Shown: in pieces, positions 27,086-64,000 of the stretch
How positions within the stretch are numbered: the first letter of the stretch is position 1
Layout: every line of letters starts with the position of its first letter
Origin: an uncultured Elusimicrobia bacterium
GTDB lineage: Bacteria > Elusimicrobiota > Elusimicrobia > 2-02-FULL-39-32
Assembly: GCA_964523525.1 (NCBI GenBank)
Contig: CAZFYO010000003.1
Span: forward strand, 164,147 to 228,146
Direction: 5' to 3'
Length of the DNA stretch: 64,000 nucleotides
The notes under the pieces: model-generated
The model's database searches: none
Seen by the model: only the letters and a program-made list of their open reading frames with translations
What the model was told of the DNA's origin: nothing
Made by a program: the position numbers and the translations under genes

Positions 27086-27114
27086 TTGACAAAAAGGGCT
27101 TCGGGGGGTATAAC
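27086..27114 (+). promoter_or_regulatory. Sigma70-type promoter: TTGACA (27086-27091), 17-bp spacer, TATAAC (27109-27114). Predicted TSS is ~27121.
   Basis: Consensus -35, optimal 17-bp spacer, 5/6 match at -10. Preceded by an A-rich UP-like tract. No ORF in the following ~220 nt. Confidence 0.55.
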
Positions 27115-27147
27115 TCTGCCATAGTTCACTGATCTTTCATTGGCTTA

Positions 27148-27268: not shown

Positions 27269-27292
27269 AGTCCAAAACCTCTTGAGAACAGG

Positions 27293-27339
27293 AGCTGGAT
27301 TTTCTGCGGCAAAGCGCCCGGGAAAAACCAGCTTTTTTT
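27293..27339 (+). terminator. Putative intrinsic terminator / riboswitch expression platform. Stem AGCUGG (27293-27298) / CCAGCU (27328-27333) followed by U7 (27333-27339), directly abutting the ATG at 27340.
   Basis: Complementary 6-nt arms plus a T7 tract read from the sequence. The loop is long (29 nt) and contains a third GCAAAGC (27309-27315) that could take part in an alternative anti-terminator pairing. Confidence 0.35.
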
Positions 27340-27867
27340 ATGAAACACCACAACCTGACCCTCGAGATTAAAAAGCGCGCGATGGCCGTTCTGGCCGGAG
27401 CGGCTTTTTGCCTTTCCTTCATCGCCGTTTCCCATGCCGCCGATCCCGCCTCCTCCAAAGCATACTGGACTAATTTCCTGAACGATGGGTTGAGCGACCA
27501 GTCGCTCGACGTGCGGGACTCCGCCAACCGGCCGGTCTCCGGGCGGGTCCAAAAGGACTCCTTCAAACAGCTGTTCATCCTTACTGTTTTCCGTTTTGCC
27601 GACACCGAATTTTCTCCCGGATTGAGCCGCCTCCGCAGGATGCTTGCGGACGCCATTAACCCTCTGGCCCAGAAACTGCGGGCCGCGGCCGGACACATTT
27701 GGCAATGCGCCGAGAGTTTCGCGCTGAACCTCAACAAGCAGATCCACCGCCTCGTCCGCTTTGTCCCCTTGGGCGCGGGGGATTCTCCCGGCGGGATCAT
27801 CTCCCGGGATTCCGGCCTCTCGATTTCGTTTCAAACCGCACAATCCAACCTGCCTCTCCGCTGCTAA
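27340..27867 (+). CDS. Hypothetical small secreted protein (175 aa) immediately upstream of the giant gene
   Basis: Signal-peptide-like segment MAVLAGAAFCLSFIAVSHAADP. The true start may be the internal Met at ~27382. No recognisable domain and no obvious SD, so it is uncertain. Confidence 0.35.
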   Translation: MKHHNLTLEIKKRAMAVLAGAAFCLSFIAVSHAADPASSKAYWTNFLNDGLSDQSLDVRDSANRPVSGRVQKDSFKQLFILTVFRFADTEFSPGLSRLRRMLADAINPLAQKLRAAAGHIWQCAESFALNLNKQIHRLVRFVPLGAGDSPGGIISRDSGLSISFQTAQSNLPLRC

Positions 27868-27998: not shown

Positions 27999-28024
27999 TA
28001 CGCGCGCACGCGCGTGCGCGTACG
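27999..28024. repeat. 26-nt perfectly alternating pyrimidine-purine, near-palindromic tract TACGCGCGCACGCGCGTGCGCGTACG ~40 nt upstream of the giant-gene start
   Basis: Read directly from the sequence. Potential Z-DNA-forming segment or a stable ~10-bp RNA hairpin (one A-C mismatch) in the inter-cistronic region. Confidence 0.3.
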
Positions 28025-28064
28025 AGGAATCGACGGAAAAAAGGAGCCTGAACCACTCGAAACC

Positions 28065-31000
28065 ATGAGCATCGCAAGCGTGAAGAAATTCTTCAGAACC
28101 AGCCTCGCCCTCCTCGGAGCGGCGAGCCTGGTCTTGCTTGCGCGCACCACCTGGACCGCCGACACCTACTGGCCGAACGCCAACATCGGCACCGACCCCG
28201 AGCTGTGGCACGGTGAGACGGCGTTCTCGCTCAATGGTCAGACCAACCTCTTCGATTTCGCGAACTCCACAACTCGGCAGATGGCCGTATCGTTCACGGC
28301 GCCGACGCTCTCCACGATGACCCTGCAGGAAGTCCTGCTCCCCTGGTCTCAGTCCAACACGAACCAGACCCAGACCGTGCGCGTCCGTGTCGCAGACGAT
28401 GATAACGGCGATCCGAGCGGCGTGTACATCGCGACCGGAACCCTGGTGATCGTGAACGAACCCAACACCGGAAAATGGCGCAGTTTTGATATGACGGGCG
28501 GCGGCCCCGCGCCGACGCTGTCCGCCGGGTCCGTTTACCATCTCGTCATCGATAAAACAGTGGGAGGCCGTAATACGGTACAGGGTATTCCGGTCCGCAG
28601 ATCCATTGCCACTGCGCTCAATGATCCTTCGGCATTGAAGCGCGTGGTTTCCACGGCTACCGCGGCGACGCCGAACCTGGCCATGAACGTCAGCACGCGC
28701 GGCGCCACCAACGAAGCCTGGATGCCTCAGGACGCGGAACCCACCTTCCTGGTGAAGTTCGGCGTCACGCTTCCCAACCTGTTCTATTGGGGCAACCCCT
28801 ATCCCAGTCTCAGCGATAACACCAACAACGGCGCCCCCGCTGGACAGTTCAACGACTACTCACCCCGCATCAACCAGGCGTTGTACAAGTCCATCCTGCT
28901 GAGGTCTTCGGCCGGCGGGGGAACGAAAAAATTAAGCCGCCTCAACGTGCTGGTCGGCAAGGACACCACCACGCCCGCGGAGTCCCTGAAGATTTCGATT
29001 GAACGGACCGATACCTACGAGATGGTCGTTCCCACTGTTACCTTCGTACGCGGAACGGATTTTGCATCGGTGGACGAAGTCGTGTGGAAAACCATCAATC
29101 TGGCCAGCAACTCCGTAGTCTTAGCGGAAGGCGTCCCCTACCGCATCAAATTTTTCTCGCCAAATTCGGGAAATAATTTGGGTTACCGGCTCTACATTCA
29201 TGCGGCTTGCGATGCCGGCGGCGTGGAATGTAACCTGGACACGGTCTACTCGGAGGCCACGTTCGATGGAGACAATACCGCGATCGAAGAGTCGTCGGAC
29301 AGCGGCGTCACCTGGACACCGAATTACGGCGCCGACATAAACTTCCAGATGCGGTTCGACAACGACGTTCCGCTGATGGCCATCACCCAGCCGGCGCAGA
29401 ACGACGAATGGAACTCGATTCCCGTGATTTCCGGAACCGCTGAGGACCAGGACAAGACTGATCACGCTCTGAGCTCGCGCACCGTGGAAGTTCATATCAA
29501 GAACATTACTAACGGTTCCAATGAAGAGTGGAGCGGGACGGCCTGGGCCCCGCCGACCGGAGCCGATACGGACAACTGGAATTCCACGGGAGCCATATCC
29601 TATACCAACGGATTCAATACCCACAATTGGGACTACCGCATCCCAGCGGCAAACTGGACGCCCCAGGCCAAATACAATGTGCGCGCCCGCGCCTACGACG
29701 CGGTGCGAAACGTCTCCACCGTTTACTCCACAACTTTCACCTACAGCCCGTATCGAGGCTCACCGGAAGCGCCCGATTCCCTCCTGACCAGCATCGTGGA
29801 TAAATCGACGGTTGCAGTGGTCAATGGACTGATCGGTACGGCGAACGACGTCAATCCTCTGACTGATATTTTGGGCAACGGATTCACGGGCGTTTCCAAC
29901 GTCAAAGTGTACGTCAAGGACACGGATTCCAACGTCTGGTGGAACAGCGGCGCGTCCACCTTCTCCTCTACCGTGGAAACGTCGCTGTTCGCGTCCTTCA
30001 ATTCGCAAAATCCCGGCGGAAATTACGACTGGCAGATCACCGCGATCGGAAACCTGAATTTCATTCATGGCAAGCGGTACGCCGTCTATACGCGCGCCAT
30101 CGATAACAGCAACGTCTCGATAGCGACCGGCGTGGTGGAAAACCTGATCAGCACAATCACGTTCCGCGTGGACCGCGCAACTCCGACCGCGGCGATCACC
30201 CAGCCGGCGCATCAGGGTTCCGCTCCCTCGGCCATTATCATCAGCGGTACCGCCGTGGACTCTGTCTCCGGAGTTCAGCGGGTGGAGTATATGATCCAGG
30301 ACCTGAGCGGATCCAACCCCGGTTTCTACCTTAATAGCGCGGGCAACGGCTGGTCGATTTCCGAACCGTCCGATTGGCCCGACGCCGACATGGGCGTGCA
30401 GTTTTCCACCTGGTCCGCCGCTCCCGGAACGACCTTGACCAGCGGCGATTACGTGGTTCGCGCGCGCGTCTACGACATCGTGGGCAACAACACGGCCGGG
30501 ACTTACTCGCTTACGGTTACATCCATCACTGTAACGGTCGACAATACCCCGCCCACGTCCGCCGTGACAGTTCCGACGCACACTTACGTGGGCGCATTCA
30601 CGGCGATCAGCGGAACCGCCAACGATAATGCGAACCTCAACACCGGCGCCCAGATCAACCTCACGGTCTATCAGTCAACTTCTGGAAATTTCTGGTATGA
30701 CCCGGACGGCGATGGGGCCATCGTCGGCCGGTGGAGAAACGTTCTTTCTTCCATTACAATTACCAGCGTTCCGAATTCTCCGAGCTGGAACTGGACCTAT
30801 ACTCCTCCCGCGCACATGTTCCGGACGGGCGGCACCTACGTTTTATGCTCGACGGCCACCGACACGTCCACCAACCGCCAGACCGGCGGGAACGTGGTCT
30901 ATACGGTACAGTACGACACGCAGACTCCCGTCGCCCAATTCCAGAAGCCCGAGTTCGGGCTGGGCTGGATCCGGAGCCTGCCGACCATCTCCGGAACAAG

Positions 31001-58000: not shown

Positions 58001-61000
58001 TTATTTCAACGCCACGATCAACGTGACCGACAAATACTGGAACCGCAACCAGACCGCGAACACCAAGGTCGTGTTCGATTCCAACGATCCGTTTGACACG
58101 CTTTCATCCGATCCGGGAGAAGTCAACATCGTCAACGGTCAGGGCGTCGTGCCCGTGAAGCTCCGCACGCGCAACCTGACCACGGGCTGGACCATGACGG
58201 TCGCGACCGGACCTTCGGCGGTTGGAATCGAAACGACCTTCGCGGCGCACACTTCGACGCCGGTGCAGATCGCGCCTTCGACGCCTCTGCGCCTCGTCGT
58301 GCTGGCCCCGGGCGAACAGTTCCAGGAAGGTTCCGCCACCGGCAAGTTCTCCACCAACACCGTTCTCGCGCAGGTCGCGGGTTCCACGTTCAACGTGACC
58401 GTGATGGCCACCGACGCGGGCTACAACTTCGTCAACGACACCGCCACGGCGATCAGCATCGCTTTCAACGAGCCTTCTCCTTATGATGATGTTTACGCGG
58501 CCGTTCCTCCCGCGCTTTCGCTCGTAAACGGAACGACGACGTTCGGCATCTTCCTTTACACCGCGGAGAACAAAGAAACCAAGGTGAAGGCGTCCGGCGT
58601 CCTGACCGGCGCGACGCGTTCGTCCTCCACCGCGGCCATCCCTCTGCGGCACGACAATTTCGCGAAGTACCAGATCCTGGTCCCGCCCGAAACGAACGTG
58701 GCCGGCAAGCCTCCTTATAACATCGGCGTGACCACCGGCGGCAAGGCGGTCGTGGAGATCACGACCCAGACCGCGGGCGCGCCGTTCAACATCACGATCC
58801 GCGCGGTCGACCTCTACTGGAACCGCACCACGAACCAGTCTCCGACCGTCAACATTTACACCAGTGATCCCTACGACACGGAGATCGCGACCACGCTTCC
58901 GAACGGCGAGCGCATCCTGCCCTGGACGTTCGTGCAGGCCAACCAGGCCCCAGGCTACCGGATCTGGGTGGAAGACGGCAACCTGACGCGCACTTCGACG
59001 TCGCCCGTAATCCCCGTCAGCTATGGCGCCCCTGCGGCGCTTCAGGTCCTGCTGCCCGGCGAAACCGCGGCGCCCGGCAAAGTCCCCGGCTCCCCGGGCT
59101 ACAGCGCGCCTGCCGGCAAGAACGGCACGCCCGATATCTGGATGGCCGGCGTTTCCAGCGCGGTGCGGATCAACTCGGTGGACGTGAACTACAATATCGT
59201 CGGCAACGACGCGTCGCAGATCGTGGCCTATGCGGACGATCCCTACGACGCGCCCGCGACGTTCTCGCAGTTCCTGCAGAACGGAACCACGGTCTTCAAT
59301 TTCACGCTGGTCACGGCTTCCGGCGCGACGCGCATCCACGCTTATGACAACAGCCCCGCGATCCAGGGCTGGATCAACAACGGCAACCCCTACGATTCCG
59401 AACAGTTCATCGTTTATCCGAACTCGGCGACCAAACTGCAGGTCCTGATCCCGAACGAAATCGCGGTCCCCGGCGCGCCGCTCGGCAAGTCCTGGACCAG
59501 CATATCGACTCAGGTTGCGGGCACCGCGTTCAACGTCACCGTGAACTCGGTCGATAACTGGTACAACCTGGTGTCCTCGATCACGCCGCAGCCGCGCATC
59601 GCGGTGCAGACGAACGATCCCTTTGACACGCACCCGTCCTCGCAGATCTTGACCGCGGGATCCACGGTCTTCAGCTTCGTGATGGTGACGGCGAACCAAA
59701 ACCCCGGCTGGGTGATCCGCGCGAGCACCTGGAACGTGGGCGATCCCTTCCTTTATGATGACGGCGGTTCGCGCGCGGTGCCTCTGCGTTCCGGAGTGCC
59801 TACGCAGCTGCAGGTCCTGATGCCCGGCGAACGCGCTCTTTCGGGTGCGGCGACCAGCTACGGCAAATCCGGAACTCCCGACTCGGATGGCAACAACGCC
59901 AACGGCATCCAGAGCTTCGTGGCAGGCTCGGCCTTCGCGGTGACCGTGAACCTCGTGGACGCGTACTACAACGGCGCTTCCACCAACAGCGCCGTATCCA
60001 TCAACCTTTACACGCCGTTTGATCCCTTCGATGATCCCGCTCTGTCCGGTTTTGAATCGGGCTATCTGCCGGCCAACCCTCAGCCCCTGACGATCGGCTC
60101 CACGCAGGTGGTCTTCACCAACGTGCGGATGAACACCGCCTCCACACAGAGCTTCCGCGTGGACGGTAACCTGAGCGGAATCGCTTCCAGCACGTCGCCG
60201 ATCTTCATCACGACCCCCGCGGCGCCTTCGCAGCTCCTCGTAGTGATGCCGGGCGAAACGCGGGTCCAGGGCAAGTGGAACGCGATGCCTTACGGCCGCA
60301 ACAGCTTCACCGCCAGCACGCAGACGGTGGGGACTTCCTTCGGCGCGATCATTTACGTCACCGACCCTTACCTTAACTTCGTCTCGACCACTCTGCCGGG
60401 TTCGAACCAGATCACGGTCACGACTTTGAACGATCCTTATGACACGGAGCCGGGCAATTTCTCCATCATCGGCGGTACGGCCACGATTCCTCCTTCGGGC
60501 GCCGGCACCATCGCTTACAAGAGAGCCGGCATCGGACAGGTCGTGGCGACGGATAACCGCGCGCTCAGCCCTCTCGGAAACACGACGGCTTCGGAGAGCG
60601 CCTCCACCTTTACCGTCATCCCCGGCGCGCCTGTTTATATGCAGGTGGTCGCCCCGGGCGAAGTGGCGGTGCCCGGATGCGGACCCGGAGCGCAGGCCGG
60701 ATGCAGCGAGGGCCGCGCCAGCAACCTGCCTGACAACCAGGCGGTCGGCACTCCGTTCACGGTGACGGTCAACATCACCGACCAGTTCTGGAACGTGGTG
60801 AGCGCTTCCACCCAGATCATCAAATCTTCGTCCACCGATCCCAACGACGTGGATCCCGATACCGTCACGGTCACCGGCAGCCAGAGCTTCACGTTCAACC
60901 TGCGCCGCACGGGCAGCGCGGTCATCCAGGCGCACGACGCGGACCTTGCGTTGCCGACGCTGACCGCCGGACCCGCGCCCACGTTTGATTCCGGTTATAC

Positions 61001-64000
61001 CCAGAGCATCACCGTGACTCCCGGCGTGGCCCGCAAGATCGTCCTCCTGATGCCGGGCCAGACTCTGAACGAAGGCGCCACCACCATCGAGGAAGCCAAG
61101 TCCGGCGCGCCGGTGGAGCAGATGGCCGGTTCCCAGATCAACGTCACCGTCAAACTGACAGACGATTATTACAACGAGGTCGCGCCCAACAATCCTCCGC
61201 TGGTCGTGCGGCTCTCCACGCCGTCCGATCCCGACGCGGAAATCCGGTTCGGCGGACAGCTGGTTTCGACCGCTTCCTTCGGCGCGGGCGAATCTTCCAA
61301 AGTCTTCCAGCTCGTGATGCACAAAGCTTCCACCGCCTCCTATCTGACCGCGGCTAAATTCTCCGGCCTCGGCGCCTTCACGGATGATAATTTAACGACC
61401 GACCCCAACGAACTGTACTTCAAGGTGAGCCCGCGCGACGCGGACAGCGCGGTGGTGGACGGAACCTACGCGGGCCGCACCGGCGGTCTCCAGATTCTCG
61501 TTCCCGCCGAGACGGCCAACGACGGCATAGGCGTCTATCCGGCGTCGAAAGGCGCCACCAGCGCGGGCAAGCTCACGACCACGCTCACGGCCCAGACCGC
61601 CGGCGTGCCCTTCAACGTCACGGTGCGCCTGGTGGACGCGTTCTTCAACATATCGACTTCTCCCGCTCTGCCCATCGTCGAGCTCGGAACGACCGAGCCC
61701 TATGACACGGACCCCGTGGGCAGCGGCGTGCTGAACAGCCCGTCCCAGGGCCTGCGCGTCTATCCCGTCACCCTTTACAGCCGCGGTTCGGGCCACATCC
61801 TCACTGCCACGGCCACCACCGGCGGTTACTCGAATTTCGCGGGTGTCTCGCCCAGTATGACCGTCAACGCGTCCACTCCGACCCGCCTGCACATCGTGCT
61901 GACCGGCGAAACGCTGGTCGAAGGCAAATGGAACCAGGCTCCGCTCGGCAAATCCGGCGCGCCCACCACGCACCAGATGACCGTGGACGTGAGCGCGGCC
62001 AATGAGAGCAGCCTGGGCGCGACCGTATATGTGGTGGACGACTTCTACAACAAGTCCAACGTCACGGCCCAGACGAAAGTGGCCTTGACGTTCCCGAACG
62101 ATCCCCTGCAGGGCCTGTCGCCCAGCGTGATGCCGTCCACGCAGACCATCAATTCCGGCTCCGAAATTTTCTTCCCGACGCTGAAGCCCCGCATCGCGAT
62201 CTCGTCGTGGACCGTGGTGGCCTCCACAACGCCCGACAGCACGATGTCTCTGGCCAACTCGTCGGCCGCCTCGTCCAACCTGATGGTTTACCCGGGCCAG
62301 GCGCACCACTTGCACTTCGCCAACTTCTCGTCCACCGACATCATCGCGGGCGAAACCATCTCGGCCAACCTGCTCGCGCACGACGCGTGGCACAACCTCG
62401 TTTCCACCGGCGCCAACATTTACGCGGGCACCGTGCAGTTCAGCGCCGAAGCCGGATCGGTGTCGCCTCAGGATCCGACCGTGCCGGCCAACTATACCTA
62501 TACCGGATTCTCCGAAGCGTCGCCCGGCCTGCATAACTTCGGCAACGGCGGATTCACCCTGCGCTACGCCGGAACACGTTGGCTCAAGGCCGAGGACATC
62601 AACAATTCCCTGATCAACACCGAGCGCGGCGGCTATTCCACTCAGTCCACCATCCACGTTTCTCCGGGACCGGCCACCGGCATGCGCGTCACCGCCACGG
62701 CCTTCTCGGGCGATGACTCCGCGACCACGGGCACGATCGAGCAGGAAGCGGGCTCGCTCGACGCGCTCCCCGGCTCCCGCGGCCGCGTCCGCATCACGGG
62801 CCAATCGGTGGACAGCTTCTCGAATGCCGTTTCGTCCCAGGGCGTGCTCTTCGTGATCGAGTCCAGCGCCACCGTCGGATCAGCCTCTGATTTCGGCTTC
62901 AAATCCACTCCCAACGGGTTAGCCTGGACCGATATGGGCCTTTCGACCAGCGCGGTCACGGACGCAAACGGACAGATCGGCCTTTCGCCCCAGATTTGGT
63001 ATTACGTTTCAACCGTCAGGAACGACCAGGCCCGGGTGTGGGTGGGTACGTCGACCATGTTCAACGTGTCCGGTTTCATCACCCAGAACCTGAACATTTC
63101 CCTGCCGGTCAAGACCATCGGCGGCGACGTCAAGCAGTTTGCCTTCATCTCCTCGGTCACGGCCGTGGGCGCGGGTATCATCGTTGGACAAGGCGCGGAT
63201 TTCACGGTTGAGCGGCGCGATGCCTTCAACAACCCGACCGAAAAAGGCGCGACCACCGTGCGCCTGCACCTGGGCGACGTGGACGACGGCAGCCAGACGC
63301 AGGACACGACTCAGAAGTCTGTGCACAGCGCGTTTACCCTGGGCGGCGTGGTCAGCGGCATGACGTACGGCTCCGATTACGGTTTCTGGACGCAGGGCAA
63401 CCCCGACACGAGCCTCGGCTCCAACCCTCAGCGAACCATCGCGACGGGCCAGACGACCGCCAGCTTCCGTTATAAGGACAAGATGGCTTCCACGCCTTCG
63501 GGCGAGGACAGCCGCGTCGGCACCTGGAAGATCACGGCGCACGCCGCCGGCATCGCGCAGGCCGCGCACCAGCTGCGCGTCGACCCGCAGAACACCAGCA
63601 CGCTGCGCTTCGACAATGCGCAACGCACGATCCGCGCCGGCCGGCCCTCGCATGACGACGCCATCGCCAAAATCTTCGAAGTGGAGCTTCAGGACTCGTT
63701 CGGCAACGTCACGCTTTCAACGCGCAACGTGGACATCGTGGTCACGTCGTCCCGCACGAACTCGCCCACCAACAATTCTTTCGGTTTCTCGCGCTCGTCC
63801 GACATGTCGGTCACGGATCCCGTGTTCATCACCCATTCCTCGCCGTCCATCGTCGTGAGCCTCTCGACCGGCCAGTATTACGCCACGTTCTACTACCTGG
63901 ACACCACCGCTTCGAGCGTTTACGGCATTGCGGGATCCACGTATCCCGAGCTCCGCGCGAGCGCGACCAACCAGATGGTCAACTGGGGCCTGGGCCTCCA
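28065..64000 (+). CDS. Giant secreted repeat protein (adhesin/surface-fibre-like), >=11,978 aa, 3'-truncated by the window edge
   Basis: ATG at 28065 preceded by AAGGAG (28041-28046). Sec signal peptide MSIASVKKFFRTSLALLGAASLVLLARTTWTA. The track lists no plus-strand frame-0 ORF with a stop anywhere in 28-64 kb. All listed plus ORFs there are in frames 1 or 2, so the frame beginning at 28065 is open to the end. The translated repeats are coherent. Every long minus-strand ORF here (Arg/Gly-rich, low complexity) is consistent with antisense of a high-GC gene. Confidence 0.85.
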   Translation, partial: MSIASVKKFFRTSLALLGAASLVLLARTTWTADTYWPNANIGTDPELWHGETAFSLNGQTNLFDFANSTTRQMAVSFTAPTLSTMTLQEVLLPWSQSNTNQTQTVRVRVADDDNGDPSGVYIATGTLVIVNEPNTGKWRSFDMTGGGPAPTLSAGSVYHLVIDKTVGGRNTVQGIPVRRSIATALNDPSALKRVVSTATAATPNLAMNVSTRGATNEAWMPQDAEPTFLVKFGVTLPNLFYWGNPYPSLSDNTNNGAPAGQFNDYSPRINQALYKSILLRSSAGGGTKKLSRLNVLVGKDTTTPAESLKISIERTDTYEMVVPTVTFVRGTDFASVDEVVWKTINLASNSVVLAEGVPYRIKFFSPNSGNNLGYRLYIHAACDAGGVECNLDTVYSEATFDGDNTAIEESSDSGVTWTPNYGADINFQMRFDNDVPLMAITQPAQNDEWNSIPVISGTAEDQDKTDHALSSRTVEVHIKNITNGSNEEWSGTAWAPPTGADTDNWNSTGAISYTNGFNTHNWDYRIPAANWTPQAKYNVRARAYDAVRNVSTVYSTTFTYSPYRGSPEAPDSLLTSIVDKSTVAVVNGLIGTANDVNPLTDILGNGFTGVSNVKVYVKDTDSNVWWNSGASTFSSTVETSLFASFNSQNPGGNYDWQITAIGNLNFIHGKRYAVYTRAIDNSNVSIATGVVENLISTITFRVDRATPTAAITQPAHQGSAPSAIIISGTAVDSVSGVQRVEYMIQDLSGSNPGFYLNSAGNGWSISEPSDWPDADMGVQFSTWSAAPGTTLTSGDYVVRARVYDIVGNNTAGTYSLTVTSITVTVDNTPPTSAVTVPTHTYVGAFTAISGTANDNANLNTGAQINLTVYQSTSGNFWYDPDGDGAIVGRWRNVLSSITITSVPNSPSWNWTYTPPAHMFRTGGTYVLCSTATDTSTNRQTGGNVVYTVQYDTQTPVAQFQKPEFGLGWIRSLPTISGTSWDAFDGLAFSSISAVDVEIREDPTITGDYWNNTGQSYGGSQLWNTATLGAQNGGARSWSLTGTVENAFRLLGATYTITIRAQDNAPIPSSGYSKNLQNPTSSYVFLWDAERPTTTITSPTLSRHNDASWSSLYSVTNSSAIQGYAIDGSNRSGISAVQMRIDRNNLTASHWDFATQVWTAGLSSDSDWVSIPVVRYASSSTWSYAALKSSALADTGSYSIYVRSRDNALAFDNNAANNFNWNWQNSSTTFIYDVTTPVSVSTQPTTSLTFINSWDQAVGIRGTASDPNSGVINQVNVGVRRNSDMKWWNTSNQDFTDSPGPTLVSTNIVAGAPYQFWYIPFRQNDVSVRNELTHNTSYAILIQAVDSLAQSESLGKAYTTFYFDIAKPTAAVSWPDSNGGLNNRSYNSVTSASGTIADNIPVTVGIVEPLDASLIEVQITTAGSDGTYFYQGPNVAQGSRWSKTQKWLSNSDGQVNITYNSTLGTWQYAETGCNGSLCVGDDSVWQNGTQYGIRARATDKAGNVQTAFTNFQTTFTFDNSGPSAVSVTNPAPAHTHRRSLTTISGTATDNGGVSSMDFRVCMTSDTNTCWDGSRWAVNASTYNQAYFDGTAWGAPISVSAWQDGYQYSIIPRARDGVLPAGNATVGTAKTFRWDSTVPTSGIQFPVPNPPDNYYKSSQMGSIVGTADDTSPGTLSKVELAITRLTLGGAAEVEFDYTNRFDDSQRWNSAAPGTPLYFNAAGNPTLASWIYSIDFSTWFETGRSYQIRVRAEDAGQNVLSGGTGNQSIVRMSSFTIDNTAPLSASTSPVANDIVSTLAAIFGTASDSGGADISTVSIHIRQTNTGTRSAANWNGSGFVEGADNASSFANWFMVSGVDAATHTWRYATVTGTEWAGGTGVNEAYQYRVVSRAEDRAGNHEVSRTTITFVYDARKPASNFTNPPYNNYFTSYTLTYISGTATDPGANGVTGIFVTGVRAKIQRMDTGEYWDAAQAPGLRWQTAITSNNASAADGSFDGTSNEPWRYDISDGEFWVSNTSYTITSVARDAATVPGPNVETAVPSRIFIYDPVLPGATIQAPVSADHYNRHSKPLLTISGTATDAAPGSIDRVIVKIQSGTGVNYWTGSAWDTSITSLTATLGAGTTNWNFDIPGTAWEDGNIYKVYAYAVDRASNNITGASQIVKTFTMDLTTPTAVVISPLDDASNGIASIQGISGTASDPAPGQIMTVEFQIEEKGGGYSESSSKFLNSGKTAFDASSNTFHSATFLTGSTWTLNTSVVPWGNGNYRVYMRVTDRATNYNTKPGAAGPFSAMVEFKFESQPESYITFPAHDSYKRPSQVSAPSAISGTAKDGAAKVDAKLVDCGDDFDCTTGADNYGWWGSSWSANATGYITTTLDGVPSPDTWNFSVPQASWTALGQSRKYLLVSRSYLGITPEHAVDPNPSGAQRNAKNFVVDNQNPTVGVTRPSNNVAFTSAALTSVSGTASDASPGALDTTSVKFRIVRSSDSAEWNTGSQVFVNPPGDLFSATNLGGGNFSFTNADFTNSRPWVDGVNYAIYIQANDSAGNPAGSAVEAFNTFVYDISVPSAAILIPAANNLFIRPLSTINGTVIDVDPDVTRNDISSSGVHAVHLTIQSLGPNQPGDYFDGASFGSGVSTLTATLTGNNWSYNNAGLYNFLANASNAGNTYTIRTWAVDRASNASINNASVGFASMTFTIDPSSPTMAVTSPADGSKYRTNNVPQIVGTAVDSPTGAGKASAGLKNPGLSADGGIIVEVSYLHGGSTYYFDNVTPWTTVFTTRQPTTQTPWNLTTPAQAAYDDVISNHGDKQIRVRVRARDAVRLSDNSGYDSNLADYTGYTSFIIDGTPPVSSVTTPAPGALLNALTSIAGTANADLSGLAGLDVRIATPSAAPASWWTGSSWSATEFWVPATVDSQTAWHYDISASMLVSSRTYQFASRAYDVVGNTQTAITVSSFTFDNVPGVVVSTLPVTSQYYGGSGVTPFTGNYTPRPLSMIAGTAEDALGGVRRVELEIRQSSAVLYYDGTGFAALSSSWNVTNQVTYHTSSATWRMVNLPALHSSSRYLLRARMIDNALNISSDPSNGSTIDFLYDTAYPTSTLLTPASPYIRSISVISGTVQDEQVADPNNTTGRNAGFERVEIAIQEVGGGLYWDGAGGGSFTQPESWYAVDGGFVVSQSSVNTWYKTTLPAFSPGESYWVRSRVIDRARNVSLELVTSTYTFLYDPTPPTVTIGYPESFRLRQSSVAFSSGTASDTGGAGLNVVQMKLRLNTAGGSGGTNGKFWDPSTSRVTPENNNNFSKNEDDDTAWFSANGTSIWSTGSFAATWVDGSSYSIVVRSQDRAGNYSASYATVSFTIDNGLPSSYVSLPSSAVIQGLPLGRVSGTASDSGTGVVNSVQVAVKLLSGAGDMWLSGGGQFNVNQLNPNWLDQATGGVNFTPGAPAVWDRPIPAASLVSGASYYVISRAVDEVANQEGSGNGNMNTIRGSTFTYDRNVPTATVTIPLQLSYNNASLLPRISGTAADLLSVDSSVNRVAGIDLFIQQATAAVYWTGGGWSATPSGISISTASLPYGNTWGYTLSGAALRHNATYFIWVRAQDLAGNEQTSFAAGSSSKTFNYDIGAPTSSIQGLTNFAFYRKETITTISGTAEDEGEIGRVFTSSYSIKQASPELWWDGSTFTSPTETFFALNHDGSGMWSTGTMINRFVDGREYAARFISVDRAQNVEALKAMTSFYFDISTPSVQIQMPVHGAGYNTLGTISGTAGDNFIGLNSIQRVEYAVFVDTGGYYRSGPRDFEATTHYYNLATADMANWSQWSATNIPWSTGRTYTLDVRALDRAGNIQASFTVGVDSLTFTFDSSSPTIAIESPADASVGVFTTPRLGTLAAISGTAADLNGIRRVEVQIQQGAAGDAPARYWNGTGFSTVGSSWNVAAGGTSWSYAVPGLSNDRSYRIEARAVDNTDLVTVNISSADFVFDTSSPTAHFQFPADGSIVNGLTTISGTSVDGNTNYPSTVGTVRILVRQNSNMRWWNEGGSVFDSPVPIDITPAFGAPNWTYTGISTSNLAPDTSYYVTIRAQDQSSPVNLTNYYIYNATFTFDNSAPNVAIGQPQHNSFYNGSGVFTASGTAADVGLRPSISRTEVAIASGTGEDTWWNGTNFQGGATYYIDVATAGAGTLNWQYLGFTSTGMAVTGRNFLIYARAIDGAGNVSAVAGPRRFTYDAERPTATIVYPAVAPNNKLTLSNMTISGTAMDAVAGLRTVEVAFSSNVANDAGGWLSGANTFTNNTPIYFATAAWTGSVWQSTVALAAQGAMVNGNSYKVSVRATDVGGLMHITSRTIVYDSGVPVSGTDIPKSTDAYVRSLNTISGTAADLAPNAGNITNVQVAISTASGGSFSNWNGSAWDIADENLPLTWTWFSATPVNSPFNDNTSEPWYSTNSTPTWIAGVTYRIHVSAEDDGGNRQKDLVANVFKTTFTFDNINAVSTITAPAALQSTQTLRSVEGTMSDAISGIQKVQIAIRHPDDTNFWNGSAFNPYDAVTSWNDVSVFTSSWIYTNMPQSYVDQTVYRIYVRAIDRANNVPSDPNFNTTGVPVRIDVTSPTSSANRVHTGLGAFVLTSNSTAYISVDISSISGVASDGGLGSGVSEVKIRVRRSDGNYLNSVQTGWDTNASSVDFPFFPTTGLTAWSRDLLSANFTDGYRYQLITRSKDFSNLQNVETILTTAAFVIDRTTPIAYVASPAGSGNNRFFNNTLAIISGTVFEDNTVGGGVASGLRRVEVEIRDVTGDAVGNAKPYWDFEVTNGTWTAVQTSTPVTIVSAATGVSTWTLPSTLFPSEWQRDMGDNRLYEIRARAYDFAANTDSYRVSLSTFDITAPTATVLLPNTDPWVQTLPTISGTATDPVYGRIGVRGARIAVLMISGPNAGQWWQDDSLGAPGYVTSAQPIYFDSDGFNEGSGEWVYKSTHPAIWQTNETHRIYVAAKDKAGNLQSPTTTQYQFLYSAPPAAVGLTKPTNNRKYISLTSLAGTANNTVTVKTEVQIERKTDGAKWSVAGSSWGVYSSSYNTVCDNAAGCGNWSFSSVPSDWPVHGSSYTVTIRGSNSINQTNSESRDFAFDTTSNGGTGKPVSVSTQPTALFATSIFNIAGTAADQSNLAGVQKVEVSIQRYRNTLTEEDDPKYYWNGSTWTSAGQQYLNASLVQAAANQWNWVYSVQFSTMFAEGYGYKIWSKVTDNAYDTNDNLVGNSDEPSPAGLSFITYDIQNSTPAWTSLNHGDVRSAFSVTSGTVRDSANAGADLAQAGGNQIGQVQIAIKAVDSFNWGAGAFLTPRYWDGTSFPVGGTNENWLPTNLSTGGILAGGILTSSWTYPAQGLSLPTVGNGGFVDGRIFTVYVRSLDKADNNYTAFTVGSASHTFTADVTAPSAHFVTPVSGQKLLALNPISGTAADPVPSAGVSVAGIGRSSLSITYVQGLNTFFWTGSAWQQVVADSETWIIGGSTPTPPPGFVDLYTTSATWERPGVTWLTDKLYTIRARASDRAIPDANTGGIATVVVTIDTTTPASAVVAPSASPISSLTEITGTANADLAGLANVHITVTRSGDNFYWTGSSWSVNGATLPVNFAGTSGDITWSTDSLATANLVSGTTYTIRAYATDLVTPSANSQLPPGPASYKNTPSSFSFLFDNTPPSISISSPVSQGFYGPQKTLANVSGTALDALVATRKVELEIYNFSRDRYWDGHGFNFVSSSFVHLTGNLISWTTGMTWITNSTYGVTARAYDSLNNSSTTARINFVYDSTVPVVSQVMNPWPTTGYFRIQSQLNTISGTAHDDFAGIPNASLKDIRVAIQDVDDGDGFPWWDGSAFAAASADYRMTSSTISLTGNAPFSYPFGSDVVPSWAAGHKYDVRVRATDRSDNVSAVYSSTFTFDTSSPTVYIQDPNVATESSLSTLSGTALDASGGPQSGSLRVVKVRVKRNSGTPGFWDINSQGFTLTTLLDETTGWFDADTSDAYANWTTTQAAGANAFINAFSYSVQAIAYDRAGSSSPISFSTFTFDSGKPASFVSFPADGSFIRSLNTGITGTAQDPGDISSITQIRIAIKRLGGASDSNGDPNRYWDGGATVFSAAGNPYNFNGPISPTGGPVFDWIYGVGILPTAKLTSGVSYFITTEATDASGQVENDYYSGSSTFTFDNSSPVSGMVRPPLGGIVVTNLPYYKAMTVISGTADDYTFLPSDRQLNSGLVGGSAFTRISIRDLTQGATYWNNASSIFQDAPANISESGSFFDVTFTGASSGTWSANAGALNSQMVSGHTYIVKSSASDNIGNVQSGVYVSSFVFDASSPTLAITAPVAFPAGQYTGLAQINGTTQDNPIAPLSRVGMSSVTLQIQDLTQGTTYWNGNAFVDFPTSTINVTVTGQGTNLPWSYDTTGVPWVSGRSYRIHTRAGDMLDNRSSTQTVDFRFDFTAPQSASTKPANGEGFNATTNILSHLAGTAIDLPNYSSAPFNSGIYRVQIQLWKEKSAPNNDVYNAGTDEAFDPVQVSSFAAGNSLQWIDISNVSPVFTSSPSSINWYYPVSDAAFASGESYRLKVHTLDWLRNEESTPALVASNFVRFSKDAAPPVSYVQYPAEGQSYINPTVISGTSADVTSAIRRVQIRIRRQNTPSDLYWEGSATQWQNNPSTWVTTSHFNVWVTSVDWQYQDVPATWPSGTTYYVNVRSEDTADNVETAFTTRTFTIDNVAPQVYIQKPLNNSGFAPLNPLSTISGTASDDLAGVNRVYVQIKDLTPGASWFNGTDFTAANPPEIGSVQASWLTASNTFWYFNTPVPYQSGRYYRVVAKGYDNAGNAMAGADFVVGQTSNTFSYDSSSATAYLASPADNRSYNAATLPNITGTASDDFSGVQNVLLQVRDITQGTTYWNGVSFVNSVQTIELAVQGSSQPLPALSTYSYNTASLASAMITGHRYTINVRGRDVAQNVQNASLSPTYTVLFDTEPPTGYFTKPDSAFHSAANPLDFLVGTSTDTPNDILAAPATAEIRIRRNPPGTEYWDGLGWTSTANTWLSSAPALSWSLAKPTPDWEDDTQYRVEVRVRDSAGNLGPSTTFQISGSLFFTYDSGLPAAGIGTPVLPNINSLTQITGTAQDPNGPNGSVDKSLIHSVKIAVQDRNSLNWWNGTLINIDNPTFTGAGGFSAEPAAFWIAMATTTETQGGGAISWSTASPSLPLVAGSTYTVYVRAKDNALNFNTPISSVTFRYDNTTPASRSTAPADGSVVSAVPAIAGTAADSGSVSLVTQVGVSIGALFGAATRYYQQGVGFVPGSTEYFNPAVIAGGANWTYNDGLLTYEAGRRYIVRSQARDIAGNQEDFSAVTPASFLFDNFKPTAAVTSVNNGDYIAAAALTISGGASDSAFTQPVSSASGLAELTDGGVQVRIQDLSGGNPTSGRWWAFESDFSGNDASAAWINALTGTPASWTLTDTVINTKLASGRPYMIQVRAKDKASPANVGPSSNGTDSNFIGVAHDSKTFIYDPDAPTSYVQFPPVTTVRKLNAAGITQISGTASDALSGVPANPANIEVSMQEVSPNTAYWNGAATFTATSETYYAVDSMSGINGTWTRSSLPTFQNGTTYRIRVRARDAALPTGNLQTTNFSTSVFIYDTQLPTSTVTNINENQFVTGFSNQIVGTSVDNFEVRGVSVTISSGPTSWWNPVSEKFDSPSAIYQHAVATGPWTWVFFSTNLASGYTYRIYSFATDGAGNTNITRISTRTFVFDSGVPDSYVTYPPDGSFIGASKLTRIVGTSMDPPSGGAPANVKVYLWEDVGAVGTKETGVDRWWDGTTWQTSETPVATNATITNAPNPGDWELTADLPPTLSAAENGRRYKIYSQALDAALNTENVSLGDVLFRYDEIVPNAGIVVPAGGSLYYNGLPTISGTAQDTLNISSVQVRIEGQGIGFWDGVAFGGDNTNWRMAVGTTATNNTITWTYTSPDWAANGNIPYFVEARAFDVAGNTRTLSANTFTFDNQRPVSVTSYPVTSDLRFSSMNAIAGTANDPGSFRSGIKNVRIMIRRSLDGNYWSVGDSDWTISTDPDFNISPTQTLHTSSAVWVYSHPNFVDKTAWLPSGQTFYIYVRSEDNSRYQDFSTMTLRELNFSTRTFVFDNVAPVSRLYLPADKRAYKAASFTNISGTATDATSPISTNAIKMSLKVEDDPIGQRYWDENGSTFTFTTETWWQAGTFMNSTWTYLGFATSKLENGRHYVFRSTAADVVGNTESPSAQSRFLYDTIDPQSALVAGDNTTPDPANAADLAFGTDLVVQGRANDPGFVDSSEPDRDDIEGTGSGVGQPPTSDSAWHTGRLQILILRDVGGIPVGAEPVLYSDPGKGEAGDFYWNGSTWVAATGGEQWQDMTYIAGAVTSTWRYDDIANTNIGIPGQTSAWWKGDQYVAWTRAIDNAGNTQGSASSIASGAKFTISNNVDHFHVTGLPASLEAGADQGMTITAHDSDHAVASNFNGLINFYVDGNPGGPESMRASVGAPGDDLGLPAQQSMTNGLLTLADNLGMRLRKAATGRFVRVETNSPVGGSIRSGNSATFDVTENVSVSPAPRVMVLLGGQQYAPGKTSAPEGRVNNSTPTYRTAGDTLQITLRAVDKYWNTLVSSNPQVALTITDPFVANVSSANPQLSFGSATVTAEVRTVGNWAVNAQGAGLYTNNANPSSDFEVKPGAATRLLARFPGESRQEGKTSAPAGKSGTPTALQAGTTITITVHGVDSYYNTDPTSNMQIIVETPFDNADTEPAPRNLVNGTTHFDITYLTAGTQTVKIRTTAIAGANSTYITPNPVTVYPDGEQHLLILMPGETRISTRTAPGKTGAATALTAGTTYGATVHLVDRFFNVVDSTNDFNTDVVWPTVKVTLSDPFDQAWGYEPAAGNIGPPFNGTRVFQVRPVTKNLLSNATAHASDDNFESLYTNDTSSGIRVNPGSATRLQTVVLGETPVEGSNFANGKQGSPTARTAGNSYNISVRATDDYWNLVTSEGRDVDVESSDPYSDNPSTASLGGGLQTFTTFIPRRATAALNVFAYDASAFNPKLTASTIAVQINPNTATKLMVLLPGELLEQGKGPYDTGFTGGRSGSPTPVTAGTSIIATVRAVDDYWNHNTAPSVGVTATSSDQNDIEPSNLALVSGTTQFTFTLVSAGTQTVIATDLTAAFALSTSAVITVNGGPADRLLALLPGESLNRGKPPYPAGPNWGPAYNEGGKNGQPDEDGISGNGVQDFIAGKSYKMTVYATDARWNPDTANSYPVALTSNDPSSLNILGNKNLVAGTTTFDFTIYTAVTATGTARNLVVISTDPAPDWTYTSTFTLVPNSFSKFRMMGPGETRDPGTVAGKAGTISLSTVNVNMQVILDATDDWGNLVSTNPSVTVQTDDAYDSPDPISPTLVNGTSIFFLIPKTARHSGLNSTPATTPTVARTTVTYAGFPSASIAYSVNANATENYLLVLVPGETSLGGSAAGRTGTVQTQVAGANFVATVQAVDSRFNLRTDNPAVTISISSSSDNYFDTFNSIAITNGQGTISPVRFLSQGNHTISVSAAGWQVRNDTSSVVPVVPSSFTQLQVLLPGETAVEGSATGKAGAVFPSGLLAGTTFNITVRAVDNRFNLVPSISSTVIINGSDVYGTYPQGTSGALSSSQRIFQAVFVTSATAAQISAYVSGNPPGISTGTSTGFSVLASTPEQLMVVVPGETLVPGLPPYNMGGGKNGTPNTQLAGVSTNVAVYLTDRYYNPVSTNAVPSVLAGIRVTDQYATTSPASVNLQLSQGTTGFAVTFRSASTIGWKITASTLTGVRYNDYVTANIPVAFGSPSKLLLFTPGETRLPGSVTGKGGSINGQTVDSTFTVTVLLTDSDWNIVTTTNASVFIRTLDQYDIDPATFVVTNGSGTADINFHTAGNWNLVVTTAAGNNLTSYTNPTVSAATGTATKLQIIVPGETHVPGYDFGKTGAVITQQTSENYFNATINVTDKYWNRNQTANTKVVFDSNDPFDTLSSDPGEVNIVNGQGVVPVKLRTRNLTTGWTMTVATGPSAVGIETTFAAHTSTPVQIAPSTPLRLVVLAPGEQFQEGSATGKFSTNTVLAQVAGSTFNVTVMATDAGYNFVNDTATAISIAFNEPSPYDDVYAAVPPALSLVNGTTTFGIFLYTAENKETKVKASGVLTGATRSSSTAAIPLRHDNFAKYQILVPPETNVAGKPPYNIGVTTGGKAVVEITTQTAGAPFNITIRAVDLYWNRTTNQSPTVNIYTSDPYDTEIATTLPNGERILPWTFVQANQAPGYRIWVEDGNLTRTSTSPVIPVSYGAPAALQVLLPGETAAPGKVPGSPGYSAPAGKNGTPDIWMAGVSSAVRINSVDVNYNIVGNDASQIVAYADDPYDAPATFSQFLQNGTTVFNFTLVTASGATRIHAYDNSPAIQGWINNGNPYDSEQFIVYPNSATKLQVLIPNEIAVPGAPLGKSWTSISTQVAGTAFNVTVNSVDNWYNLVSSITPQPRIAVQTNDPFDTHPSSQILTAGSTVFSFVMVTANQNPGWVIRASTWNVGDPFLYDDGGSRAVPLRSGVPTQLQVLMPGERALSGAATSYGKSGTPDSDGNNANGIQSFVAGSAFAVTVNLVDAYYNGASTNSAVSINLYTPFDPFDDPALSGFESGYLPANPQPLTIGSTQVVFTNVRMNTASTQSFRVDGNLSGIASSTSPIFITTPAAPSQLLVVMPGETRVQGKWNAMPYGRNSFTASTQTVGTSFGAIIYVTDPYLNFVSTTLPGSNQITVTTLNDPYDTEPGNFSIIGGTATIPPSGAGTIAYKRAGIGQVVATDNRALSPLGNTTASESASTFTVIPGAPVYMQVVAPGEVAVPGCGPGAQAGCSEGRASNLPDNQAVGTPFTVTVNITDQFWNVVSASTQIIKSSSTDPNDVDPDTVTVTGSQSFTFNLRRTGSAVIQAHDADLALPTLTAGPAPTFDSGYTQSITVTPGVARKIVLLMPGQTLNEGATTIEEAKSGAPVEQMAGSQINVTVKLTDDYYNEVAPNNPPLVVRLSTPSDPDAEIRFGGQLVSTASFGAGESSKVFQLVMHKASTASYLTAAKFSGLGAFTDDNLTTDPNELYFKVSPRDADSAVVDGTYAGRTGGLQILVPAETANDGIGVYPASKGATSAGKLTTTLTAQTAGVPFNVTVRLVDAFFNISTSPALPIVELGTTEPYDTDPVGSGVLNSPSQGLRVYPVTLYSRGSGHILTATATTGGYSNFAGVSPSMTVNASTPTRLHIVLTGETLVEGKWNQAPLGKSGAPTTHQMTVDVSAANESSLGATVYVVDDFYNKSNVTAQTKVALTFPNDPLQGLSPSVMPSTQTINSGSEIFFPTLKPRIAISSWTVVASTTPDSTMSLANSSAASSNLMVYPGQAHHLHFANFSSTDIIAGETISANLLAHDAWHNLVSTGANIYAGTVQFSAEAGSVSPQDPTVPANYTYTGFSEASPGLHNFGNGGFTLRYAGTRWLKAEDINNSLINTERGGYSTQSTIHVSPGPATGMRVTATAFSGDDSATTGTIEQEAGSLDALPGSRGRVRITGQSVDSFSNAVSSQGVLFVIESSATVGSASDFGFKSTPNGLAWTDMGLSTSAVTDANGQIGLSPQIWYYVSTVRNDQARVWVGTSTMFNVSGFITQNLNISLPVKTIGGDVKQFAFISSVTAVGAGIIVGQGADFTVERRDAFNNPTEKGATTVRLHLGDVDDGSQTQDTTQKSVHSAFTLGGVVSGMTYGSDYGFWTQGNPDTSLGSNPQRTIATGQTTASFRYKDKMASTPSGEDSRVGTWKITAHAAGIAQAAHQLRVDPQNTSTLRFDNAQRTIRAGRPSHDDAIAKIFEVELQDSFGNVTLSTRNVDIVVTSSRTNSPTNNSFGFSRSSDMSVTDPVFITHSSPSIVVSLSTGQYYATFYYLDTTASSVYGIAGSTYPELRASATNQMVNWGLGL
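29380..53410 (+). repeat. Class-I tandem domain array inside the giant gene: ~60 divergent ~110-145-aa beta-sandwich (Ig/FN3-like) repeats
   Basis: Each unit has [PS][TS]xx[IV]TxPxxxxxxxxxxxx[ILV]SGTAxDxxxG[IV]xxVx[IV]x[IV], then [YW]W[ND]G[ST]x[FW], then W...Y, then Y.[IV].[VA]RAxDxAGNxx, then F[TV][FY]D. ~60 [ILV][SAIT]GT[AS]xD anchor motifs were counted in the translation. Confidence 0.65.
53410..62300 (+). repeat. Class-II tandem domain array inside the giant gene: ~22 ~130-aa repeats with consensus hxhLhPGETxxxGxxxxxxGxPxxxxAGxxFxhTVxAVDxYWNxV...SxDPxDxxP...LxNGTxxFxFxLxxAGxxxI
   Basis: Recurrent LMPGETRIS / LLPGELLEQGK / LVPGETSLGG / LLPGETAVEGS / IVPGETHVPG / LLPGETAAPG / VMPGETRVQG etc. 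at ~390-nt period, each followed by VxAVD.YWN and DP(F/Y)D motifs. Confidence 0.6.

Follow-up and report, generated by a model that had tools for sequence, protein, structure and literature searches.

The window analysed here, i.e., a 64,000-nucleotide stretch from an uncultured Elusimicrobia bacterium (contig CAZFYO010000003.1 of GenBank assembly GCA_964523525.1), carries a giant gene whose reading frame has not closed where the window stops. It is preceded by two paralogous genes for candidate membrane glycosyltransferases, an RNA leader with a predicted riboswitch, and a small open reading frame (ORF). The window neighbourhood of the giant gene otherwise consists of ordinary housekeeping genes. 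The features are, in order:

23180–25054, + strand: TPR1, a candidate PMT_2/TMTC-like GT-C multi-pass membrane domain with C-terminal TPR repeats
25051–26976, + strand: TPR2, a TPR1 paralogue with a candidate PMT_2/TMTC-like GT-C domain and TPR repeats
27017–27033, no strand assigned: perfect palindrome TTTATCA-TAT-TGATAAA, candidate operator upstream of the promoter-like site
27086–27114, + strand: sigma-70-like promoter (TTGACA, 17 nt, TATAAC), recognised by eye and nearly identical in the orthologous locus L056
27147–27266, + strand: c-di-GMP-I riboswitch aptamer (Rfam RF01051)
27291–27339, + strand: intrinsic terminator (expression platform), a −23 kcal/mol hairpin with a U7 run behind it
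27340–27867, + strand: gene for a small, 175-aa secreted protein bearing a signal peptide, first after the riboswitch (GC3 0.74)
28001–28026, + strand: conserved GC-rich hairpin element (9-bp hairpin in the centroid fold), located between the small ORF and the giant gene
28065–28160, + strand: start codon of the giant gene and Sec-type signal peptide or signal anchor (MSIASVKKFFRTSLALLGAASLVLLARTTWTA), read from the sequence and conserved in L056
28161–29366, + strand: N-terminal domain of ~400 aa, nearly lineage-specific, presumed distal tip
29367–53708, + strand: class-I array of ~62 Ig/FN3-type β-sandwich modules of ~128 aa, with a short linker module at its end
53709–62417, + strand: class-II array of 23 modules of ~125 aa with the motif LPGET...GKxGTP...VD..wN...DPYD, from a self-HMM search
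62418–64000, + strand: class-III (tail) modules, three in the window, located by HMM, with the ORF still open

The giant frame, translated from the ATG at 28065 to 63998 on the + strand, comprises 11,978 codons and not a single stop, where ~321 stops are expected from base composition (P ~1e-139 for none). Each of the remaining five frames contains 49–526 stops over the same interval, and translation of all six bears out the original prediction of a gene that stays open to the window end. The nearest in-frame stop 5′ of the ATG is at 27945. The GC contents of the three codon positions (0.53/0.53/0.82) resemble those of neighbouring genes, and the orthologue in L056 has the same ATG and signal peptide and is 83% identical over 699 aa, with dN/dS ~0.09; the GC3 value and the dN/dS ratio agree with the earlier assignment of this frame as the coding one. 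The giant frame is a genuine coding gene under purifying selection. Its product, as far as it is encoded in the window, is rich in Ser/Thr (22%) and almost devoid of Cys. The ribosome-binding site AAGGAG that had been proposed is present at 28041–28046 (+), but at 18 nt from the ATG it is unusually far away; in L056, GGAG is found 7 nt ahead of the ATG.

Metagenome assemblies often get repeat-rich genes wrong, and the exact DNA at the window end is absent from both contig collections searched (genome and metagenome). These two points are what can be said for regarding the giant frame as an artefact, i.e., as mis-assembled, collapsed or expanded repeats or as a stop-poor non-coding high-GC stretch, a reading whose probability is next to negligible in view of the chance of a stop-free frame of this length, the strong codon-position GC pattern and the dN/dS of 0.09 relative to L056. 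Repeat collapse or mis-assembly is also unlikely because the repeat units share only ~25% mutual identity, DNA-level tandem repeats are absent from the giant gene, and the independent metagenome-assembled genome (MAG) at L006 has the same unit number and order. This orthologue is collinear with the window in a single HSP of 4,095 columns at 48.6% identity and likewise has 23 class-II units; for 20 of the 23, the best match occupies the corresponding place in the other array.

A Sec signal had been predicted at the N-terminus, and by inspection a positively charged n-region and a 15-residue hydrophobic core are indeed seen, and both are kept in L056. The uniqueness claimed for the first ~440 aa likewise stands, since the N-terminal domain is nearly an orphan: it has no match in Pfam, NCBIfam or PDB and no homologue by word-indexed search or metagenome scan, and only five weak matches (best E = 3.9e-7) among 1.84 billion representatives, one of which itself has a borderline DUF4082 match. 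No internal duplication is detectable between its two halves, and a single-sequence AlphaFold (AF2) model gave no usable fold (pLDDT 30.5). It is nevertheless the part of the giant protein that is most conserved relative to L056, with 81% identity (81–83% when a wider N-terminal comparison is included).

Downstream of this domain the window encodes a total of ~88 diverged Ig/FN3-like β-sandwich units in three classes. The ~60 class-I repeats announced in the original prediction came out as 62 HMM matches with a period of ~128 aa, and the ~22 class-II repeats as 23 (aa 8549–11451, mean identity 28%). The region at 62.3–64 kb had been correctly singled out as a different sequence type, but it is not the C-terminus of the protein; it is a third, mid-protein module class, beginning at aa ~11452 with HMM matches at aa ~11576–11650, 11703–11779 and 11868–11950, and the orthologues run on beyond it by some 3,040–3,150 aa. 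Pfam and NCBIfam searches of the giant protein yielded almost no matches: Big_13 reached 33 bits, and the rest was noise below threshold. The class-II and tail profiles gave nothing informative against PDB sequences. No recognised ligand-binding or adhesion domain is present in the giant protein, an observation that speaks against an adhesin.

Homologues of the class-III tail were located by tblastn at 53 Elusimicrobiota loci (30–64% identity over ~600 aa), and at most of these the frame extends 2,690–3,150 aa past the equivalent of the window end. The family shares one HMM architecture, class I followed by class II and class III/tail; the module order is fixed while the repeat number differs widely between lineages, the C-terminal 3,300 aa are conserved, and members occur across free-living groundwater lineages. 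The conserved end of the relatives reads ...YPNPFD...IYDLLGY...GGY...RKIGVIH, scores above cutoff for FlgD_ig in five of seven cases and for TIGR04183 in one of seven, and aligns with the C-terminal domains (CTDs) of PorU, PorZ and Por_Secre_tail. By these matches, the giant protein is a member of a phylum-wide family with a predicted FlgD-Ig/T9SS-type CTD at its end; that the window protein itself carries such a sorting-like domain, beyond the window, we infer from the orthologues alone. Because relatives of the same architecture extend 2,700–3,150 aa further, the full protein probably has ~15,000 residues and about ninety Ig-like modules, encoded by a gene of ~45 kb that is cut by the window end. 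A stretch of ~2,700 aa at the C-terminal end of the relatives is without annotation, and the C-terminal 3,149 aa of L006 gave nothing informative against PDB. The giant protein has no match in an index of 5.8 billion proteins, which is weak evidence since its 58–64% identical orthologues are missing there too. The 53 loci, for which mainly the 3′ ends are covered, showed no counterpart of the window's TPR genes, small ORF, N-terminal domain or RHS protein.

A long rod of tandem Ig-like β-sandwich modules with distinct ends is also the architecture of Salmonella SiiE, Marinomonas MpIBP and Pseudomonas LapA, and the modules of the giant protein weakly resemble domains of SiiE and RTX adhesins in profile and fold. 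It is, however, very improbable that the giant protein is a type-I-secreted RTX adhesin of this kind. It has an N-terminal Sec-type signal in place of the C-terminal T1SS signal of those proteins, the C-terminal 3,149 aa of the L006 orthologue contain no RTX repeats and otherwise only a terminal FlgD_ig/CTD-like domain, and no ABC, MFP or TolC secretion genes are present in the 28 kb upstream; on these three counts an RTX/T1SS identity was rejected. Unlike those of RTX adhesins, the repeats are only ~25% identical, and the module families are essentially missing from Pfam.

T9SS cargo adhesins of Bacteroidota, e.g., Flavobacterium SprB (~6,500 aa), have a C-terminal sorting domain that is bound by PorV. 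The giant protein resembles them in its signal peptide and huge repetitive body, and its orthologues in a C-terminal β-sandwich that matches FlgD_ig/Por_Secre_tail. The likeness extends to the gene neighbourhood, where an outer-membrane gene for a PorV-like barrel lies directly 3′ of the giant gene at 26 of 46 loci; the profile of this family matches PDB PorV (6h3i_F, E = 3.9e-5), but the proteins of the relatives differ from PorV of T9SS by an additional C-terminal TPR part. At the two closest relatives, L004 and L006, no PorV-like gene was seen in the 550 and 886 nt present downstream, and neither a T9SS nor a PorV-like gene lies within the 64-kb window. Elusimicrobiota are moreover outside the known range of T9SS, which has not been described in the literature for this phylum, and the CTD is seen in orthologues alone.

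With at least 10,000 aa in an uncultivated lineage, the giant protein also resembles those of Omnitrophota and related PVC bacteria (10.1101/2023.11.21.568195), and giant genes of neighbouring uncultivated phyla have been tied to predation (10.1101/2023.11.21.568195). A predatory or lytic, Omnitrophota-like protein with cell-wall-degrading enzymes, for which the unannotated C-terminal region of the relatives might leave room, has only a slim chance of being the right description here: Omnitrophota giants contain many enzymatic domains (10.1101/2023.11.21.568195), whereas neither the 11,978 aa encoded in the window nor the 3,149 aa of L006 contain a detectable one.

Upstream of the giant gene, the palindrome at 27017–27033 falls in a block with the same sequence in the window and L056, and the promoter at 27086–27114 was missed by a consensus scanner because its −10 hexamer ends in C. 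The following aptamer resembles c-di-GMP-I (GEMM-I) riboswitches in that the match to RF01051 covers the full model (1–87) above the gathering score (37.7 bits versus 35; E = 8.5e-4 for the whole window) and is succeeded by a terminator as expression platform; it departs from typical members in that its second hairpin has a large insertion and its score is marginal. The leader has a folding z of −3.75 and is 79% conserved relative to L056 despite pS ~0.6, and the aptamer strands are kept there, with a compensatory change from A-U to G-C in the GUAA hairpin. The aptamer of L056, the sole orthologous leader compared, scores just 20.2 bits owing to a 59-nt insertion. The same riboswitch class with the same aptamer core is found at 26 related loci (Rfam 37.5–60.2 bits; 10 of 18 pairs covarying), where it appears to control the PorV-like gene 3′ of the giant gene.

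The 5′ half of the terminator can pair alternatively with the aptamer 3′ strand at 27253–27266, and the two pairings are mutually exclusive (−33.7 for the alternative pairing versus −24.6 kcal/mol with the aptamer strand sequestered). L056 retains the terminator (−24.4 kcal/mol, U9). In the folding model the window RNA looks like an OFF switch; its polarity is uncertain because the folds of the window and L056 disagree. For an adhesin, an OFF switch would be out of the ordinary, and it finds no support in the fold of L056.

The small ORF after the terminator has no match in Pfam, NCBIfam or PDB, is 56% identical to a syntenic 178-aa ORF of L056 (dN/dS 0.31), and is separated from the giant gene by a 197-nt spacer, in which the window and L056 agree at every position of the hairpin element at 28001–28026 but have diverged around it. 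This perfectly conserved GC-rich hairpin between the two ORFs would fit a riboswitch that governs the small ORF alone, with the giant gene transcribed independently, an arrangement that is possible and on balance doubtful. The spacer has neither a promoter-like site nor a strong terminator, the order of leader, small ORF and giant gene is common to the window and L056, and the 26 relatives attach the same riboswitch class to the giant-gene system at another position. The c-di-GMP-I aptamer, with c-di-GMP as its predicted ligand, apparently controls an operon of ~46 kb.

Further upstream, TPR1 has TPR Pfam matches at aa 450–620, at least six hydrophobic segments and, following TM1, the motif PFFFDD; it aligns with a PMT_2-bearing family and is syntenic in L056 and L059. 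TPR2 overlaps it by 4 nt, shares 34% identity with it in the membrane domain and has a dN/dS of 0.12 relative to L056. Some of the 299 TPR2 homologues have PF13231 or PF02366 or carry the name 'protein O-mannosyl-transferase', and PMT_2 is matched by 13 of 40 aligned family members. Neither TPR1 nor TPR2 has a direct Pfam match to PMT_2 or DUF1736, even at E = 10, and a PDB profile search for the glycosyltransferase family was dominated by TPR matches; the two proteins are candidate PMT_2/TMTC-like GT-C enzymes through a link of transitive homology. In the alignment of 40 TPR2-family sequences, D50-D51, R86, VHPxQTEAV and K208-E209 are invariant, in agreement with the TMTC motifs DD, RP, VHPxxTE and KExxxT (PMC7801869). 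Eukaryotic TMTC1–4 are GT-C O-mannosyltransferases with TPRs that modify cadherin domains (PMC7801869, PMC7001481), and the window genes resemble them in a GT-C-like membrane domain, motifs and TPRs next to a gene for cadherin/Ig-like modules. TPR1 and TPR2 may act on the giant protein, as suggested by their adjacency in just three close relatives.

The adjoining glycosyltransferase genes, together with 22% Ser/Thr, nearly no Cys, the lack of a recognised binding domain and the retention of the family across free-living groundwater lineages, would also suit a coat or spacer of structural role that binds no specific ligand, e.g., a glycosylated fibrillar layer that provides distance or protection. 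We regard this as unlikely. The N-terminal domain is the most conserved part relative to L056 (81–83%, dN/dS 0.09), which suggests a specific function at the tip, and the wide variation of repeat number by lineage is that of length-tunable adhesins.

The best explanation of the whole, to which we assign a probability of roughly 0.7, is that the giant gene encodes a c-di-GMP-regulated, possibly glycosylated cell-surface fibre or adhesin of ~15,000 residues. The giant protein would be exported by Sec, and the two adjacent TMTC/PMT-like GT-C enzymes may add O-linked glycans to its Ser/Thr-rich Ig modules in the periplasm. Delivery to or retention at the outer membrane would proceed via the C-terminal sorting-like domain, with the PorV-like barrel encoded next door as the putative partner in many relatives. 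The rod of Ig modules would then project several hundred nanometres, with the N-terminal domain as the distal binding tip, and c-di-GMP would gate transcription of the operon through the riboswitch terminator.

A more specific version, which is decidedly unlikely to hold in all its parts, has a minimal T9SS-like route displaying a fibre of ~15,000 residues and ~0.4 micrometres under TMTC-like O-mannosylation and c-di-GMP riboswitch control. The route would consist of the C-terminal sorting domain paired with a dedicated PorV-like barrel; the fibre would be O-mannosylated as animal cadherins are; and the riboswitch would stand before the giant gene in the window lineage or before the PorV-like gene in other lineages.

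Giant repetitive surface proteins and their enrichment in this phylum are already known. Elusimicrobiota are explicitly listed as enriched in genes of at least 10,000 aa (West-Roberts et al. 2023, bioRxiv 10.1101/2023.11.21.568195; PMC11573180), and neither survey describes the architecture, regulation or partner genes of the Elusimicrobiota proteins (10.1101/2023.11.21.568195; PMC11573180). What the locus adds is a concrete phylum-wide family with fixed module order and variable array length, its candidate partner genes and its apparent regulation. If the proposed links are true, three matters become testable: the route by which a protein of 1.5 MDa gets across a diderm envelope outside Bacteroidota, whether O-mannosylation of the PMT/TMTC type on Ig/cadherin-like modules is older than eukaryotes, and riboswitch control over one of the longest bacterial transcripts.

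A minor observation concerns the opposite strand of the giant gene, where nine antisense ORFs of at least 450 aa with 12–22% Arg and 12–19% Gly are found, all in the codon-register antisense frame. This frame has 49 stops, exactly the number of TTA, CTA and TCA codons in the sense frame. The antisense ORFs, which had been pointed out as Arg/Gly-rich and set apart from the real gene, are a codon-complement artefact of the giant gene, and ORF tracks restricted to stop-terminated ORFs conceal such genes and display their antisense shadows.

The giant gene encodes a secreted fibre of Ig modules that belongs to an unstudied, phylum-wide family and most likely acts as a surface fibre or adhesin under c-di-GMP control; its way of working resembles that of giant adhesins. 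Since giant genes for 10,000 aa or more have been reported as frequent in Elusimicrobiota (bioRxiv 10.1101/2023.11.21.568195; PMC11573180), the existence of this gene is unsurprising; what is new here is its architecture, its PorV-like and TMTC-like partners, and its candidate riboswitch control.

The giant gene is genuine and is truncated by the window end. As the original prediction held, the frame is stop-free and still open there: six-frame translation of 28065–64000 finds no stop in its 11,978 codons (28065–63998), where about 321 are expected from base composition (probability of none about 1e-139), and 49–526 in the remaining five frames; the closest in-frame stop 5′ of the ATG is at 27945. 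GC at the three codon positions is 0.53/0.53/0.82, a pattern like that of the neighbouring genes. Collapse or expansion of the repeats appears very unlikely, because Tandem Repeats Finder detects no DNA-level repeats in the gene, the class-I units are diverged (mean pairwise identity 25%, neighbours in the array being no closer than far-apart units), and the gene is matched on two other contigs. L056, a Logan contig with the orthologous 5′ end, shares the ATG and signal peptide (699 aa at 83% identity, dN/dS about 0.09), and L006, an independent MAG contig, aligns with residues 7978–11978 in one collinear HSP (48.6% identity, 4,095 columns) and carries 23 class-II units, 20 of which find their best match at the equal array position. 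The nine long Arg/Gly-rich antisense ORFs reported earlier are present (at least 450 aa each; Arg 12–22%, Gly 12–19%), and all lie in the codon-register frame of the giant gene, as do all 22 antisense ORFs that reach 150 aa; that frame has 49 stops, exactly as many as there are TTA, CTA and TCA codons in the sense frame. The long minus-strand ORFs opposite the giant gene are artefacts.

The protein encoded in the window has the following parts:
Residues 1–32, Sec-type signal sequence (by inspection)
Residues 33–434, N-terminal domain without family match
Residues 8549–11451, 23 class-II modules
After class II, reaching the window end, three class-III modules (the tail)

Inspection bears out the predicted Sec signal, which is conserved in L056, and the estimate of about 22 class-II repeats was close to the 23 counted. 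Residues 33–434 have no match in Pfam, NCBIfam or PDB; 1.84 billion representative proteins yield only five weak relatives, one of them with a borderline DUF4082 match. Ser and Thr make up 22% of the protein, and Cys is nearly absent. The proposed Shine-Dalgarno AAGGAG does precede the ATG, but at a spacing of 18 nt (28041–28064) rather than the canonical 7 nt at which GGAG stands in L056, where 11 of these bases are missing.

The last 600 residues in the window match 53 loci at 30–64% identity, essentially all of them in Elusimicrobiota MAGs and most with the frame open over the entire 10-kb upstream flank. Module order is common to the relatives and copy number varies (9 to at least 27 class-II units). 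Because the frame runs 2,690–3,150 aa beyond the window's end point in most of these loci (3,150 aa in L006, 3,038 aa in L004), the 62.3–64 kb stretch, originally taken for a C-terminal region, is mid-protein. By homology, the full protein should comprise about 15,000–15,100 aa. L046 (9545–18148) encodes a 2,868-aa paralogue in which a signal peptide and a single class-I domain at the N-terminus lead straight into the tail and then the conserved C-terminal region, class-II units being absent; L046 and L049 belong to the same MAG, which places two giant-family members in one genome. In L007, L020, L036, L041, L043 and L044 the giant frame is broken and class-I-like or C-terminal-domain (CTD) sequence resumes in another frame, which may reflect sequencing frameshifts or real pseudogenisation.

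Upstream of the giant gene lie the following features:
23180–25054 and 25051–26976, two tandem paralogous genes (4-nt overlap), multi-pass membrane domain plus TPR
27017–27033, perfect 7-3-7 palindrome TTTATCATATTGATAAA in an AT-rich block identical in L056, just 5′ of the promoter-like site
27086–27114, promoter-like site TTGACA-17-TATAAC, upstream of the aptamer
27147–27265, c-di-GMP-I aptamer (Rfam, full-length, 37.7 bits versus a gathering score of 35)
27291–27339, strong intrinsic terminator downstream of the aptamer (−23 kcal/mol, U7)
27340–27867, small ORF, 175-aa secreted protein with signal peptide, first gene past the riboswitch
28001–28026, GC-rich hairpin CGCGCGCACGCGCGTGCGCGTACGAG, perfectly conserved with L056 in a diverged spacer, about 40 nt 5′ of the giant-gene start

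The 5′ half of the terminator has an alternative pairing with the 3′ strand of the aptamer, and the palindrome may be a regulator binding site. The leader retains 79% identity with L056 despite synonymous sites near saturation; the GUAA hairpin shows a compensatory change, and the terminator is kept. The L056 aptamer scores only 20.2 bits (Rfam) and carries a 59-nt insertion. The small-ORF protein has no family match and is syntenic in L056 (56% identity, dN/dS 0.31); a spacer of 197 nt separates its gene from the giant gene, and we infer that the two are co-transcribed. The start of the small ORF directly adjoins the terminator U-tract and is without an obvious Shine-Dalgarno.

In 26 relatives a c-di-GMP-I aptamer (37.5–60.2 bits in Rfam; 10 of 18 pairs covarying) lies between the giant gene and a PorV-like gene, ending 2–6 nt before the ATG of the latter in nearly all. 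That one riboswitch class recurs at two positions of one system supports c-di-GMP control of this system. A HAMP-GGDEF diguanylate cyclase encoded 17 kb upstream of the riboswitch (9132–10517, minus strand) is a possible local source of c-di-GMP. The conserved cassette directly 3′ of the giant gene, at 19688–21524 in L010 and in 25 other loci (e.g., L014, L025, L041, L051), comprises a double TTGACA promoter-like element with TGCTATAAT, the aptamer, and a PorV-like outer-membrane barrel with a C-terminal TPR part.

The terminal domain of the relatives is strongly conserved (...SNYPNPFDxRKGG...VTITIYDLLGY...GGY...RKIGVIH*), passes Pfam FlgD_ig in five of seven cases, and aligns with the C-terminal sorting domains of T9SS proteins (PorU, PorZ, Por_Secre_tail). 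Of the 46 loci that include the end of the giant gene, 26 continue directly with a co-oriented gene for a protein of about 538 aa; aside from its C-terminal TPR part, the sole solved-structure match of this protein is the T9SS cargo-binding barrel PorV (6h3i_F, E = 3.9e-5). A PorV-like gene was found neither within the 64-kb window nor in the short 3′ stretches of its closest relatives, and the literature holds no description of a T9SS in Elusimicrobiota; the T9SS-like display is therefore a resemblance, not membership, and the giant protein cannot be filed as T9SS cargo. In a subgroup lacking the PorV-like neighbour (L007, L009, L020, L023, L032, L034, L047), the gene after the giant gene encodes a secreted protein with putative HEAT repeats, and the one after that a membrane protein with a possibly CHASE2-like start. 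Membership of the RTX/T1SS family is rejected on its defining features: the giant protein starts with a Sec-type signal, the C-terminal 3,149 aa of L006 show no RTX repeats, and the 28 kb upstream contain no ABC, MFP or TolC secretion genes.

The membrane parts of the tandem pair at 23180–26976 have no direct Pfam match. Among their homologues are proteins bearing PMT_2/PMT as well as JGI 'protein O-mannosyl-transferases', and the invariant residues of this TPR-GT family match the TMTC motif set DD, RP, VHPxxTE and KExxxT (PMC7801869), which suggests that each is a PMT_2/TMTC-like GT-C domain fused to TPR. The order TPR-GT, TPR-GT, small ORF, giant gene is kept in L056, and the TPR pair in the syntenic contig L059. 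On the basis of adjacency and composition, the two enzymes might glycosylate the giant protein. The remainder of the upstream region holds ordinary chromosomal housekeeping genes. At 14957–17881 a 974-aa secreted protein with signal peptide carries YD/RHS-type repeats (weak RHS_repeat and YD_repeat matches), in which no toxin tip was recognised, and 2068–4734 (minus strand) encodes an 888-aa protein in which an MFS transporter domain is fused to a spermidine-synthase-like one.
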